Virus record (IMG/VR): IMGVR_UViG_3300031088_000782
Coordinates: 128,001-192,000 of that record
Source: a virus
Taxonomy: Duplodnaviria; Caudoviricetes
Length of the DNA: 64,000 bases
Strand: one strand, 5' to 3'
The notes beneath the pieces are model-generated. The model had not been told where the DNA came from, did no database searches, and saw only the letters and a program-made list of their open reading frames with translations. Each line of letters opens with the position of its first letter. Within the stretch, counting starts at the first letter, position 1. This document shows, piece after piece, positions 2,990 to 50,848 of the stretch. The position numbers were made by a program, and so were the translations under genes.

Positions 2990-4273
2990 ATGAGCAAAGA
3001 AAACAAAGATTTACCAGAAAACGAAGATAAACATACATCAAATGATAGCATTAATAATGGCGCATCTGATGATCAAATGTTTGCAGATTTGATTTCTGAT
3101 GATGATAATAATGAATATACTCGTGATAAAGAATATGAAGAAGCACTTCCTGATCTTGATGAAAATCATTTTGCATCTGATAAAACATCAGAGACTTCAG
3201 TTATTGATTCAAATGAAACAGAAAGCGAAAACAAATCTCCAGTAATTCATTCTGAAGATGATAAAATTCAAAACACAAATATGAAAAATACTGTTGATGA
3301 TTCTGCTGTTCCTAAGAGCCGTGCAGAGATTAAGCGAGCAGAAAAGAAGAAGAAGAAAAAGAAAAAAATTATCGCAAGCTCTATTGCTGGAGCTGTTATT
3401 ATTGCAGGACTTGGCGGATTTTTCGGATTTCAAAAATATATGGACACACAGTCAACCACTGTTCCCCAAGCAGCAAAAACCATTAGTTATGATGAAGACA
3501 CCAAAAAAGTTTGTAAAGAATTTGTTTCTTCTGATCTAAAATGCGAAGTCAAGTGGGAAATCAATGACAATGTTGATCGCGGAGGGCTGTTGAGTCAATC
3601 CGTGGCAAGTGATGAAAAAGTCGACAATGGAACAAATGTTGTTCTCACATATTCCAATGGGCCTTCAACTTCTGAATTCCCTAACCTTAATGGTGTAAAT
3701 ATTGAGGAAGCCAAAAAATCTCTTTATAACATGAATATTGAAGTTTCCGAAGTTAAAGAAGTTGATGGAAATGGACTTGATAAAAACGAAATAGTCTCAA
3801 CAAGTATAGAACCTGGGACTAAGGTTAATAATGGTGATGCTGTCACCATTAATGTATCTAACGGAAATGTAAAACTTCCTGATTGGAGCGGCAAAACTAA
3901 GGAATATGTAGAAGCTGATGCTAAAAAATTGGGAATCAAGGTTAAATTCACAGAAGAAGAATCAGATAAAGCTTCAGGAATTGTCATTAGTCAAACCCCT
4001 AAAGCTGGTGAAACAACTACATCAACAGAAATAAATGTAGTTCTTTCGAAATCTTTTGAAGCCAAAGAAATTGAAATTCCTGATGTGATTGGGAAAACAG
4101 CAGAAGAAGCTCAAACAGAATTAGCTACAGCCGGATTCCGTCAAATTAAAACTGTCAAAGTAAAGAATGCGGAAGTTACTGAAACACAAGTTACACAAGT
4201 TGTCCCTGGCGTTGGACAAAAAGGAAACAGTGAAGAAAATATTGTCATTATTGTTTCTGAACCTATCAAGTAA
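2990..4273 (+). CDS. Membrane-anchored multi-PASTA-domain protein without kinase domain
   Basis: Acidic N-terminus, poly-K plus TM helix, then about 4 PASTA-like repeats (PNLNGVNIEEA, PDWSGKT, PDVIGKTAEEA). Confidence 0.85.
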   Translation: MSKENKDLPENEDKHTSNDSINNGASDDQMFADLISDDDNNEYTRDKEYEEALPDLDENHFASDKTSETSVIDSNETESENKSPVIHSEDDKIQNTNMKNTVDDSAVPKSRAEIKRAEKKKKKKKKIIASSIAGAVIIAGLGGFFGFQKYMDTQSTTVPQAAKTISYDEDTKKVCKEFVSSDLKCEVKWEINDNVDRGGLLSQSVASDEKVDNGTNVVLTYSNGPSTSEFPNLNGVNIEEAKKSLYNMNIEVSEVKEVDGNGLDKNEIVSTSIEPGTKVNNGDAVTINVSNGNVKLPDWSGKTKEYVEADAKKLGIKVKFTEEESDKASGIVISQTPKAGETTTSTEINVVLSKSFEAKEIEIPDVIGKTAEEAQTELATAGFRQIKTVKVKNAEVTETQVTQVVPGVGQKGNSEENIVIIVSEPIK

Positions 4274-15570: not shown

Positions 15571-15996
15571 ATGACTGAAATAACAGCAACTAAAGAAAAT
15601 ATTTTAGAAGAAAATTCAAGTAAGATTTTTGACAACATCATGAGTATTATCAAAGATGTAAGCAAAGCAACTCGATCTTCTTATGTCAAAGAAAAAATTG
15701 TTGAACAAGAAAAATACATTTACGAAGCAAAAGTAGATAATGCTTTACATAGATTTATTCAAATTGATGAACTTTTGAAACATGCGAAACAGCCAAAATT
15801 TTATCATTCATCAGAAAAGAAACAGAAGATTGAAGAAAATTTAGCCTTTTGGGAAATTAAAAGAGAAGAAAGTATTCAGAATTTCAAGAAAATCGCTCTA
15901 TCCATTCCTGACAATATGAATAGAGATGAGATCAGCAGACTTGTTTCACTGTATTTTGAAAAGTTTGAAATTATTGCTGAAACCGAGATTATTTAA
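15571..15996 (+). CDS. Hypothetical protein
   Basis: 141-aa ORF with codon style like its neighbours. Confidence 0.65.
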   Translation: MTEITATKENILEENSSKIFDNIMSIIKDVSKATRSSYVKEKIVEQEKYIYEAKVDNALHRFIQIDELLKHAKQPKFYHSSEKKQKIEENLAFWEIKREESIQNFKKIALSIPDNMNRDEISRLVSLYFEKFEIIAETEII

Positions 15997-16280
15997 TTTT
16001 TTAAAAAATATTTAATAATGATCTTGCATTCTACGATTTTATTTGTTATAATGAATTTCACAAACATATTTTGAAAATATTTCGTCAATATTTAACAAGA
16101 AAAAGTACATGTTGATATTGTATTTTTGAAATTTGTTAGAAAAAGATTTCAGCTTTTGAGAAAGAATATTTTCGAATGTTGATATTATTGAAAGTTTCTT
16201 TGATAAGATGAACTTGTCGAAGAAAAAGACAAAACGATATTAATGAGCACCAACTAATTTTTAAGAAGGAGGAACAACTA

Positions 16281-16457: not shown

Positions 16458-17133
16458 GTTTTCTACTCAGGTCATAAACGCACAAGACCTGCCACCAAAT
16501 AAAAATTCCCTTGGAAACAGGGTTGAAATGTGCAAATCCCTTAAAAAACAAAGTAAAAAGAAATAAATTTAATAATATTTTTGTTAAGGACTGTCCCAGA
16601 GTTGACACGAGAGAAAAATATGTTAAACTGATTTCTACAAAACTGAATAAAGGGAATTCTTAATACAAAGACTTTCCTTACAGCATTTGACTTGAAAGAG
16701 AAAAATGTGTTATAGTTACGAATAGCAATCAAATTATATAAAATATTGATGACTGACACAGAGTTGACACGAGATAATGAATGTGATAAGATTGAAAACG
16801 TAACAACGACAAATCAAAGCAATTTGGTTTTGTAAGGTTTAAAAATGAATAACAGGTTGGTGCACGAGCCAAGGAAGAAAAAGTGATGACGCAATCGGAC
16901 GTTACTCTAGAAAAGAAAATCCGTGATTGACACTGTTGAAAGTGTGAAAACTTTCTGAACATTGTTGAAGTAAGGCCGGGAGGCAAAATTTCAATGATTA
17001 GGATGTGGATCGCCGCTCATGCGGACAAAAATGATTTTGGTTAATCATTCGTTCATAGTATAAATAAGTAACGCTATGAAATTGACGAATGATTAAATCT
17101 TCGTCAATGTTGCTTATTTCAGCATTGATATAT

Positions 17134-17475: not shown

Positions 17476-17478
17476 CAA

Positions 17479-17695
17479 TTGGGACTGCACACACTGTCGA
17501 TGTGAAGCGGTCCTGAGTTAAACCACTGATCTGCCATGTGTAGAATTCAGTATCTTTCTCCGTTGTATCGCAGTATGACGGAGAATGCTTATCGCTATCT
17601 GACAGTAGCGGTAATAGAAAACGAGTTATTGATGCACGTCTGTCAGCGTCATGGATAATCATTGCGACAATGACCGGCATGGATAGTCCGGTTAA
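17479..17695 (+). ncRNA. Candidate structured RNA (multi-hairpin, possible pseudoknot)
   Basis: GC-richer spacer with stems TTCTCCGTT/GACGGAGAA, TTATCGCTAT/GTAGCGGTAA, ACCGG/CCGGT; loop CTGACA complementary to downstream TGTCAG. Confidence 0.5.
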
Positions 17696-17709
17696 AAACG
17701 TTTTCATAT

Positions 17710-17967: not shown

Positions 17968-18042
17968 CCAGATATAGGAAAGTTTGGTCATTCCGCCTAG
18001 TTAGGGGCTAGGAGATCGCAGGTTCGAATCCTGCTATCTGGA
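17968..18042 (+). tRNA. tRNA-Pro(AGG)
   Basis: CCAGATA/TATCTGG acceptor; CCTAG-TTAGGGG-CTAGG. Confidence 0.88.
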
Positions 18043-18179
18043 CAAATGTTATAGAAGTATCATAAGCCATGAGAAAATATAACATTGATAAAAGTTGAAC
18101 ACCCTCGTAAAAATGTTTGCGAATATATTCTAGGCTAGTTTATATTGGGCTGAACGCGCATTTTCTTTTATCGCCTTAA

Positions 18180-18327: not shown

Positions 18328-18411
18328 CTATGGGACGGCAATCCCTAGTGTTTTATCATCGGGTCTGTTTTGCCGAACAGAATAAGATGTAGCCAACACT
18401 TTAAACATGGC

Positions 18412-18485
18412 TCCCTAATGGTCTAGTTTGGTTAGGGCACATCCGCGTGGAGGGTGGGGCGTAGGTTCAAATCCTACTTAGGGAA
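18412..18485 (+). tRNA. Atypical tRNA, GTG in a non-canonical loop
   Basis: TCCCTAA/TTAGGGA acceptor and T arm intact; loop GCGTGGA lacks U33. Confidence 0.55.
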
Positions 18486-18616
18486 CGGTTTCGAAAGGAA
18501 CTACTGAAATGCGCAATTTCGAGTGGATAGTATCATTGGGTGCTGTTTATCTTAAATAGTTAAGCTGACTATGCAGGTGAGACAGTATAAGATGTAGTTA
18601 CCACTATAAACAAAAC

Positions 18617-18689
18617 TCCCTGATAAGTCTCAAGAGGTAGAGCTGGCAATACGCGTCCGGTTGTGGGTTCAAGTCCCACTCATAGGGAA
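18617..18689 (+). pseudogene. tRNA-like element with bulged acceptor and no clear anticodon loop
   Basis: TCCCTGA...TCATAGGGA; T arm GTGGG-TTCAAGT-CCCAC. Confidence 0.5.
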
Positions 18690-18874: not shown

Positions 18875-18967
18875 CTGAATATGCAAAAATATTCATAAAT
18901 TTTTAACAAATATAACCTTTGGGAAGTAATTAAGGTTCGATTCTGTCTGTTGTATTTGTTAAATTAT

Positions 18968-19532: not shown

Positions 19533-19642
19533 CTTTATACAAATAATAATTGTATAATTTTCACAATTTATTTGACAAAATAATTGACTAATGCTATATT
19601 TAAGTTAATAAATAAATTTGGTAATTAAATAGTGGAAAATAT

Positions 19643-24964: not shown

Positions 24965-25038
24965 TACTGTGTAGTTTAATGGCAAAACACTAGGCTCTTA
25001 AAGCTTAGCATATAAGGTTCGAATCCTAATCACAGTTG
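24965..25038 (+). pseudogene. Degenerate tRNA-Lys(CTT)-like gene with a 9-nt anticodon loop
   Basis: CTAGG-CTCTTAAAG-CTTAG; mismatched T stem. Confidence 0.55.
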
Positions 25039-40138: not shown

Positions 40139-41567
40139 ATATCATATAAGCGATTCAGGTAAAGTAGTCATTTGTCGTGCAACTAAAACTGTTTGCCCAA
40201 AAGAAAATTTTGACAGTATTGAAGATGCTGAAAATTTTAAAGAAACTCTATACAATAATACTATTCCAACTATGTCTAAACAGTCCAATAAGGGACTTAG
40301 GGAAGCTGAAAAGTATTATGGCGGTAAGTTCCTCACTTATCATAATATATCGCTTGAAAAAGGCGTAGAAAGCGTTTTAGATGATTTGAAAAAGATAGGG
40401 AACCCATTAATTGTTGGCGGGGCTGTAAGAGATTCGTTTGTAGGATCAGAAAATAAAGATATAGATATCGAAGTTCATAAAACAGATATAGACACACTTG
40501 TTAAAACATTGAAAAATGATGGATATATAGTTGATGAAGTAGGAAAACAATTCGGTGTTCTCAAAGTTTCTAAAAAAGGTGTTGTGAATGACTTAGACAT
40601 ATCTGTTCCTCGTAAAGAAAATCGTTTAGGAGCAGGTCATCGATCTTTTAATGTTGAAATGGATGAAAATATGACCGTTCAAGAATCTGCGGAAAGAAGA
40701 GATTTCACTTTCAATGCTGTCATGTATGATCATACAAGAAAAGTTATCATCGATCCTTCTGGTGGAAAGAATGACTTAAACAATAAAGTCATTCGTCATG
40801 TTTCTGAGAAATTTTCTGAAGATCCTTTAAGAGCTTTGAGAGGATTTCAGTTTGCAGGTAGATTTGATATGACTGTTGCTCCTGAAACAGCAACTTTATG
40901 TAAAAAATTGAGAAATGAATATGAACACTTGTCAATAGAAAGGGTGCAAGAAGAGTGGGGTAAATTCTTCACTAAAAGCGCACACCCAGCAAAAGGAATT
41001 CAAGCTTTAAAAGATATGGGATGGAATGACACTATACCCGGACTTCAAAAAGCATTAGACAATTCTTTTACAAAAGAATCTCTGAATAATCTCCCTACTG
41101 TCAGCAAGCAGAATAAAATAATTTTCGGATCTGCTGCTATCGCTCGAAATATGAATAATAACGAAAGAAAAAGTTTTATCTCTTCAACAGTCATTGGAAA
41201 TAAAGAGCAATTAAAAACTTATACTCTTAGCAGTTTTGACAATAATGAAGCCAGAACTTCTTATGAAAGAAAAAAAATTGCTAAAAAACTTGAGAAAACA
41301 GGCTTTACCTTTAGAGATTATCATAATTTCTCTCAAATGAATAATGACAGCGAAGGTGTTAAATTAAGTGAGAAAGCTGTTGCTGAAGGTTTAGCGGATG
41401 GCCCTGAAAAAGATTTGATTGCTGGTAAAGATATTTTTTCTTTGACTGATAAAAAACCTGGTCCTTGGATGGGTAAATTATTGAATGAAATAAGAGACAA
41501 ACAGTATCAGGGTGCTTTTTTAAATAAAAATGAAGCAATGATGTTTGCAAAAAGTAGAATACAGTGA
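40131..41567 (+). CDS. cca: Class II tRNA nucleotidyltransferase (CCA-adding) with extra N-terminal leader
   Basis: VGGAVRD, DIDIEV, RRDFTFNA, EDPLRALR, ERVQEEW, PGPWMG. Confidence 0.9.
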   Translation: MTKYHISDSGKVVICRATKTVCPKENFDSIEDAENFKETLYNNTIPTMSKQSNKGLREAEKYYGGKFLTYHNISLEKGVESVLDDLKKIGNPLIVGGAVRDSFVGSENKDIDIEVHKTDIDTLVKTLKNDGYIVDEVGKQFGVLKVSKKGVVNDLDISVPRKENRLGAGHRSFNVEMDENMTVQESAERRDFTFNAVMYDHTRKVIIDPSGGKNDLNNKVIRHVSEKFSEDPLRALRGFQFAGRFDMTVAPETATLCKKLRNEYEHLSIERVQEEWGKFFTKSAHPAKGIQALKDMGWNDTIPGLQKALDNSFTKESLNNLPTVSKQNKIIFGSAAIARNMNNNERKSFISSTVIGNKEQLKTYTLSSFDNNEARTSYERKKIAKKLEKTGFTFRDYHNFSQMNNDSEGVKLSEKAVAEGLADGPEKDLIAGKDIFSLTDKKPGPWMGKLLNEIRDKQYQGAFLNKNEAMMFAKSRIQ

Positions 41568-50368: not shown

Positions 50369-50458
50369 TGTAAGAAGCTCAGGTGTGATTTTTTACTCAA
50401 CGGTTCAGGTTGGGAACAAAGCAGACCAAGTAGAATTGAACAGGTTGGACTTCTTACA
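50369..50458 (+). ncRNA. ffs: SRP RNA (4.5S type)
   Basis: Helix-8 signature GGTTCAGG-TTG-GGAA-CAA-AGCAGACCAAG (E. coli GGUCAGG-UCC-GGAA-GGA-AGCAGCCAAG); closing stem TGTAAGAAG/CTTCTTACA. Confidence 0.85.
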
Positions 50459-50463
50459 TATAA

Positions 50464-50813
50464 GGGGATGCATTAGGTTTCGACTTATGATCTGATTATT
50501 AAAAAGCAGGTAGCCATTAAGAAGTTGGCTTTAAAAAATCTTAAACAAATAATTGCAAACGCAAATAAAAACGCTTACGCACTAGCTGCCTGAGCCGTTC
50601 ATATTAGATATATTGTTCTCGATACTAATATGAACGTCATTTTAAGAGAACACTTTACCTGAACTAAGTTTCATAAGGATAAAGTAAAAGAAACTAAACT
50701 AAATATAATTTTTGGCAACAGTTGAAATATTTAGTTAATAAACAGTTGCGAAACCTGTAATTCTTTTTAATATGACAATCGTAAGGACAGGGGTTCGACT
50801 CCCCTCATCTCCA
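50464..50813 (+). ncRNA. ssrA: tmRNA; tag (A)NANKNAYALAA* at 50555-50593
   Basis: GGGGATG...GGTTTCGAC 5' end; GGGGTTCGACTCCCC T arm; CATCTCC-A with G3-U70; tag ends YALAA. Confidence 0.93.
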
Positions 50814-50848
50814 CGATTATTTTTATTTCAAAAACAAGGAGAGCTATT

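Follow-up and report, generated by a model that had tools for sequence, protein, structure and literature searches.

A tandem pair of structured RNA motifs, each set before a putative tRNA mimic, in the tRNA array of a probable giant conjugative element

The Y RNAs YrlA, YrlB and Yrn1, which occur with Ro60/Rsr and are carried on mobile elements, join a helical handle to a non-decoding tRNA-like domain (Chen et al. 2014, PMC4201824; RF02553). In theta ribozymes, a small structured RNA sits at a fixed position beside a tRNA gene; these RNAs are found at tRNA 3' ends, fold as HDV-like nested double pseudoknots and use a catalytic C in J4/2 (Kienbeck et al. 2024, PMC10879173). Orphan structured RNAs that are not tRNAs also lie within the tRNA arrays of mobile elements, as with T4 RNA C and RNA D (PMC3014915) and GOLLD/ROOL (PMC12286853). 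The tRNA arrays of phages and megaplasmids have repeatedly yielded RNAs with new chemistry or partners, the Y RNAs, theta ribozymes and GOLLD/ROOL among them. In eukaryotes, the MALAT1 mascRNA and the NEAT1 menRNA (RF01684) are tRNA-like folds that do not decode and that come immediately after a conserved structured element, with a U-rich triple helix upstream. Here we describe a locus that shares features with each of these systems, a duplicated RNA motif inside a tRNA gene cluster, both copies of which are followed at short distance by a tRNA-like element.

The locus lies in a 64-kb window, the whole stretch of DNA that was analyzed, which spans bases 128001-192000 of a 309,534-base record. 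IMG/VR classifies this record as a virus and a complete provirus. Its helicase is also carried on 681-kb contigs, so the record amounts to less than half of the element; contigs of 570-830 kb are common among homologs of the helicase. The record encodes a VirB4-type ATPase of the kind used in conjugation, had no match to the one terminase family tested against it, and contains a helicase whose best plasmid matches (≤34% identity) are megaplasmids of Euzebya, Rhodococcus and Streptomyces. The best BLASTN matches of the tRNA array are megaplasmids of Micrococcales. Taken together, these features suggest that the record is a piece of a giant, plasmid-like conjugative element of about 680 kb, probably from Actinomycetota. 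A GTDB scan via the helicase returned no member of the element's clade. DNA runs with the region come from the phyllosphere, surfaces, food fermentation, plants and animals, and in RNA runs a fraction of 0.05-0.11 of the region's words was present. The window holds 66 tRNA calls, only three of which encode CCA, together with one tmRNA and one SRP RNA, and among its proteins are a CCA-type nucleotidyltransferase (40272-41567) and a PP-loop protein resembling TilS. The SRP RNA (42.7 bits in Rfam) is followed directly by the tmRNA, with tag ANANKNAYALAA, at 50369-50816 of this mobile element.

Both copies of the motif lie on the + strand, copy 1 at 18347-18400 and copy 2 at 18522-18605, and after each an 11-nt linker (18401-18411 and 18606-18616) leads to a tRNA-like element; the coordinates, sequences and spacing are as a sequence-only reading of this DNA had reported. 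Each of the 10-mers shared between the copies occurs exactly twice in the window (at 18354 and 18531, and at 18383 and 18588). In the common fold, a stem P1 (AGUG/CACU plus one or two pairs) is followed by an internal loop L1, a 4-bp P2 (CAUY/GAUG), a tandem G·A (GG/AA) and P3. Copy 1 forms P1 from 18347-52 and 18395-400, L1 from UAU facing UAG, P2 from CAUC/GAUG and L2 from GG/AA, and its P3 carries a short apical loop; L1 could alternatively contain two further pairs and a bulged U. Copy 2 has the same core, with a long P3 that includes an internal loop and an apical hairpin. The motif alone measures 54-84 nt, and the whole unit of motif, linker and tRNA-like part about 140-170 nt. Compared with shuffled sequences, the + strand folds have z-scores of -3.0 (copy 1) and -4.2 (copy 2). 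Because copy 2 shows no excess stability on the - strand (z +0.08), the motif is best placed as an RNA on the tRNA-sense strand. A covariance model of the motif (R1) matched at the two copies only, within the 309.5-kb record. The inner stems had been read as covarying between the copies, which overstated the case: CUGU/ACAG is identical in both, and the difference is an indel. A comparison of the copies shows compensation at a single pair, the fifth of P1 (U-A to G-C), and a single wobble change in P2 (C-G to U-G); the real evidence for covariation comes from relatives, described below.

Contigs from four studies aligned to the window at 80% likeness (X2, X3, X6 and X10), and each of the four carries the unit, in identical form in X2, within a single contig in X3, and as pieces in X6 and X10. 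Two further contigs with the unit (L199 and L200), 90-92% identical around it, were reached through a spurious gene call over tRNA-His. Another contig (L255, from SRR8867410) matches the window with 100% identity across a compared length of 1.8 kb; it probably comes from the source sample and was not counted as support. The homolog search that the sequence-only reading had proposed thus finds the motif outside the duplication, in X2, X3, X6, X10, L199 and L200.

The first tRNA-like element, TL1 (18412-18485, + strand), has a 7-bp acceptor stem (U1-A72, followed by A73) and an intact D arm, T arm and G15:C48 contact. Its anticodon loop, GCGUGGA, has C33 rather than U33, and it measures 7 nt in the window and 6 nt in L199. 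Both ARAGORN and Rfam call it tRNA-His(GTG), with an RF00005 score of 45.6 bits. The second, TL2 (18617-18689, + strand), is called by neither program; by inspection only, it has an acceptor with a 2-nt bulge, a canonical T arm, G18G19 and A15:U48. Its anticodon arm is weak, with a 3-bp stem and a 7-nt loop that differs in three alleles (AAUACGC in the window, AAUAAGC in L199 and GAUUGAC in X3). An earlier description of the two anticodon regions as non-functional agrees with these features, but its statement that TL2 has no loop was wrong. Since acceptor, T arm and elbow are kept while the anticodon loops drift, TL1 and TL2 are non-decoding tRNA mimics, which makes the annotation of 18412 as tRNA-His false. 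Of the tRNA fold, the mimics have the acceptor/T stack, the T-loop consensus, G18G19 and the 15:48 and 26:44 contacts. Although only 51/80 positions are identical between them overall, the two have in common the first five acceptor pairs, A73, a C at position -1 and the 11-nt distance to P1. Both linkers are A-rich and end in this C(-1); the length is the same in the two copies and in L199/L200, and linker 2 has one substitution in L199. At the same position, 52 of the 66 array tRNAs have U. We considered C(-1) as an RNase P block and rejected it, given that high-GC bacteria often have a C at this position (PMC10465520).

Variation among the relatives indicates which parts of the unit are held. 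The statistics for X3 cover 39 of its 42 substitutions and leave 34 gap letters outside; at least 32 substitutions fall in the unit, this being the number listed, with three more substitutions and the indels outside the list. Under null models that assume homogeneous mutation and ignore heterogeneity, the listed substitutions touch 11 predicted pairs and keep 10 of them, where random placement breaks 7.7 ± 2.0 (P = 0.0006), and three are double compensations (P = 0.005); under the same assumption, none of the nine listed in the motif and linkers falls in a 73-nt core that was defined from the two window copies alone (P = 0.003), and pooling X3 with L199 puts one of ten sites there (P = 0.018). 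In the alignments, TL1 has compensatory changes in its acceptor at 18414/18482 and in its T stem at 18462/18476 and a swap of the 26:44 purine pair (18439/18457), and among relatives its D stem and anticodon stem show wobble repairs. Copy 1 has an unchanged core in X3 (listed substitutions) and L199/L200, where changes are confined to the apical loop and one extra U in a U-run, and copy 2 has pair-preserving changes in X3 and L199. The allele of X6 and X10 matches over 18587-18638 (52 nt) with two differences, while the P3 strand just before is unalignable, and its apical hairpin loop is that of X3 and L199. The motifs of L199 are 4-5% diverged and the spacers after 18690 are 60-70% diverged, with one tRNA-Trp gene lost. 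Because an AT-rich spacer near the unit is also only 9% diverged, the similarity of L199 is weak evidence by itself, and part of it may reflect a shared recent block. The X3 substitution pattern and the replacement of P3 in X6/X10 argue that the core is kept in sequence, the stems in pairing, and that the apical part is exchangeable. The proposal of a conserved structured RNA tied to a tRNA mimic is therefore borne out by purifying selection on core sequence and pairing among the homologs, and we conclude from these patterns of substitution that the unit is a real, selected, two-part non-coding RNA.

Some neighboring hairpins do not appear to belong to this unit. The spacer between the units (18487-18521, + strand) forms two small hairpins, with GAAA and GCGCA loops and a compensatory change at 18488/18501 in X3; since many of the arrays' tRNAs have a trailer hairpin behind them, these are probably not unit-specific. 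A GAAA hairpin after each mimic was rejected as part of the unit because it is replaced after TL2 in L199. Directly 5' of copy 1 lies the trailer hairpin of tRNA-His (18328-18346, + strand), whose loop reads CGGCAA, CAGCAA or CAACAA among relatives, and this variation led us to reject a conserved GCAA loop before P1.

The motif looks restricted to close relatives of the element. Searches with R1, a model built from two sequences that could miss distant homologs, covered five IMG/VR relatives, four Micrococcales megaplasmids and, for two relatives of 727 kb and 437 kb, their array regions, and gave no match; nor was the motif found in relatives at ≤71% helicase identity (the array regions L125/L197, L128 and L130 and the whole records G001-G005). 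For relatives at 77-92% protein identity, the contigs end at the start of the array. Pattern scans of IMG/VR and metagenomes yielded chance matches only, none with the fold and a tRNA-like neighbor (for the metagenomes, among the matches listed), BLASTN against phages and plasmids found only tRNA arms or short chance matches, and a protein search with the antisense ORF found generic tRNA-Trp matches. No description of the motif was found in the literature searched, and the folded RNA is apparently undescribed.

No Rfam family matched over the motif at E ≤ 10. The Y RNAs are among the closest known systems. Like them, the unit combines a helical handle with a non-decoding tRNA-like domain on a mobile element, and distant relatives of the element carry Ro60 and Y-like RNAs in the same array. 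However, the 5' and 3' ends of the unit are unpaired, whereas those of YrlA pair into one stem, and the tRNA domain of the unit is a normal D-AC-T cloverleaf behind a separate hairpin, whereas that of YrlA is permuted (T-AS-D). Neither unit contains the YrlA pattern GNCGAAN0-1G, and the best RF02553 score, 22.6 bits against a gathering threshold of 69, falls over T-arm/tRNA sequence rather than the motif. Near the unit, CGGCAA is found only in the loop of the 4-bp trailer hairpin before copy 1, where X3 and X10 have CAACAA. No Ro60 gene was found in the 309.5-kb record, which covers under half of the ~681-kb element; a DUF2828 search near the array gave no match either, nor did it in the control genomes. 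By analogy, the unit may work like a Y RNA, but it is not one. In three related giant elements (G001, G004 and G005), a TROVE/Ro60 gene lies inside the tRNA array (L184:7795-9375, - strand; L190:13606-15195, + strand; L193:3539-5167, - strand). Each of these arrays has three copies of a Y-like RNA with an invariant GGUUACUUC loop, one G001 copy having a T arm, and the family is absent from the searched arrays without TROVE. A model of this family (R2, from six sequences, with L193:8654 and three weaker matches outside its training set) found no match in the window with filters off. The P1 of the motif, AGUG/CACU followed by (U)UAUC, also resembles the upper stem of vertebrate Y RNA and nematode sbRNA (A/GUG-CAC/U; PMC4726728). 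We regard this likeness as coincidence, as it was noticed post hoc, covers about 8 nt and lacks the lower Ro60 stem in a bacterial mobile-element context.

As in the theta ribozymes, a small structured RNA holds a fixed position beside a tRNA gene, but here this RNA is a hairpin without branches, and the tRNA on its 3' side is dead; with at least 19 nt to the upstream 3' end and no Rfam match, an HDV-like or theta ribozyme was rejected. The twister, twister-sister, pistol, hatchet, hammerhead and hairpin ribozymes had no match at E ≤ 10 over the unit. The apical loop is conserved in twister and pistol; it is free in the motif, and since the defining loops are also absent, a likeness to these two was rejected. 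The layout resembles that of the MALAT1 and NEAT1 tags, with no Rfam match over the unit. GOLLD and ROOL are multi-pseudoknot RNAs of several hundred nt and, with no Rfam match to the 54-84-nt motif, were rejected. By analogy, the unit would be grouped with other orphan RNAs encoded in tRNA clusters, for instance T4 RNA C and RNA D (PMC3014915; compared by description), from which it is set apart by being a tandem pair, each member with its own tRNA mimic.

Our best reading, at a probability of roughly 0.45, is a handle that binds protein and is coupled to a tRNA mimic, on the same logic as a Y RNA; protein binding was also among the roles raised by the sequence-only reading. In the element's tRNA operon, each unit would be the gene of a two-module non-coding RNA: a helical handle of specific sequence (P1, L1, P2 and the tandem G·A), with a free apical stem, and, at a distance of 11 nt, a tRNA mimic that does not decode. 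A consensus scan placed three sigma-70-like promoter matches ahead of the array (16602-16792, + strand) and the next strong match at 19572. Because the units lie between these and have no strong match themselves, they would be transcribed as part of a tRNA polycistron and excised from it together with the tRNAs. Protein-binding RNA elements typically present invariant non-Watson-Crick strands on an exchangeable stem, and the invariant non-canonical strands of the motif, on a swappable stem, suggest such a surface, through which the handle would bind a specific protein. The mimic would offer its acceptor/T/elbow surface to tRNA-recognizing factors, as a tether or decoy following the logic of Ro60 and Y RNA, with the modules remaining joined in the working RNA. 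The fixed 11-nt spacing and the shared acceptor end of mimics that are otherwise so diverged argue for this coupling, and with real tRNAs flanking the units, a dead tRNA would be unneeded as a mere cut signal. Ro60-type particles, judged by genes, occur in the element's lineage, as the relatives' arrays combine a Ro60 gene with three handle RNAs. Several points count against the handle-plus-mimic reading. TL1 has the look of a good substrate for RNase P and has C(-1), so the modules may be split, and the Ro60-linked RNA family of the relatives is not matched by the motif. Within the 309.5-kb record we found no TROVE/Ro60 match and no partner protein of the motif, and the predicted folds of two clade-restricted ORFs at the array (15571 and 25543), taken as partner candidates, were uninformative. 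If it is a true handle and mimic, the unit would follow the Y RNA design without depending on Ro60, and it may reveal a way in which giant plasmids protect the tRNA metabolism of their hosts or redirect it. Its narrow distribution limits this significance; it is small and easily synthesized, with a sharply defined core and natural variants.

The main rival, possible but doubtful, is a processing tag resembling mascRNA, in which RNase P would cut at +1 of the mimic and set the 3' end of a free small RNA of 65-130 nt; the freed core would then act by itself, as an antitoxin or a sponge for protein, for instance. RNase P reads the acceptor/T stack and the elbow and ignores the anticodon, and TL1 keeps a 12-bp acceptor/T stack, the D/T elbow and the 26:44 pair. 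The units, having no strong promoter match, would need processing, and RNase P cuts YrlA of M. smegmatis (PMC4201824). However, the neighboring real tRNAs could supply the same cuts, the acceptor of TL2 is bulged, and the two mimics, otherwise diverged, have their acceptor-end sequence in common. A protein-binding core is common to this reading and the preferred one. The units could also be neutral relics, either a degenerate tRNA that was duplicated with its structured leader and is decaying, or a structure that just protects the transcript. The 13 other T-arm relics in the array and the absence of the motif from relatives at ≤71% helicase identity fit this unlikely reading, which is largely refuted by the double compensations in TL1, by a core free of listed substitutions beside a replaced stem, with loops more conserved than stems, and by the persistence of the unit in L199 while the neighboring tRNA-Trp was lost and the spacers after 18690 diverged.

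The sequence-only reading had also raised a catalytic motif. As a small cis-acting ribozyme of a new class, the double-internal-loop core would span the -1/+1 junction with a short pseudoknot, dock in this way on its own mimic's acceptor end, and cleave or modify the 5' end of that tethered RNA, which we consider highly improbable. The two conserved internal loops would suit such a role, as would a candidate pairing, seen by eye, of the L1 3' strand with positions -2 to +1 (AGC/GCU in copy 1, AGU/ACU in copy 2), which with the A-rich linker takes an H-type pseudoknot shape; tRNA-linked ribozymes do exist (theta, PMC10879173). This pairing is nevertheless 3 bp long with one covarying pair, and a possible fourth is broken by T18599G in three runs. 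No ribozyme family matched at E ≤ 10, the defining residues of known families are absent, and the motif lies 5' of the mimic rather than at a tRNA 3' end; moreover, a 5'-OH would result from self-cleavage. A pairing between GGG in the core and CCC in the mimic had a predicted probability of 0 and was rejected. Least probable of all is a ligand- or protein-gated switch over maturation of the mimic or the downstream tRNAs. In unit 1, strands of the motif do pair with TL1 in alternative folds that compete with P1 (whose probability is 0.68 alone and 0.17 in the tandem fold), but unit 2 shows no such competition (0.99), there is no ORF or terminator downstream, and the cloverleaf is backed by compensatory changes.

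Other RNAs in these arrays also lie outside the standard tRNA calls. A second structured non-tRNA RNA follows tRNA-Pro at 18090-18172 in the window and recurs in L197 (~4005-4097), L130 (~16154-16245) and L199 (~1143-1236), and it is more widespread than the handle motif. It has 25 predicted pairs, six with double changes in four sequences, a possible pseudoknot of CACCC with a 3' GGG, and no Rfam match. Further RNAs resembling tRNA-Arg, apparently without a normal D arm and with a long variable arm, recur across relatives and are uncalled by ARAGORN (L197 at ~7727 and ~9028, L184 at ~8035 on the reverse strand and L187 at ~3627). T-arm motifs outside ARAGORN calls occur in the window at 18934, 21465, 21506, 21837, 22022, 22087, 23809, 25223, 25335, 27862, 27989, 28079, 29182 and 30018, and represent either degenerate tRNAs or further mimics. 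In L128, a long imperfect hairpin (~15890-16039) lies directly 5' of an aberrant tRNA with an 8-nt anticodon loop, a layout analogous to that of the unit in unrelated sequence.

A strongly folded, GC-richer spacer (-77 kcal/mol) occupies 17477-17709 of the window; in L199 its middle (~17525-17640) is nearly identical and its ends are replaced. At 24966-25037, a weak tRNA call (31 bits) has the anticodon TTA and is ochre suppressor-like. The tRNA-Pro(AGG) at 17968-18043 is tRNA-Pro(TGG) at the same place in L199 (1024-1099) and L200, which additionally insert a tRNA-Val(AAC), and the AGG/TGG difference is isoacceptor swapping at one position of the array.
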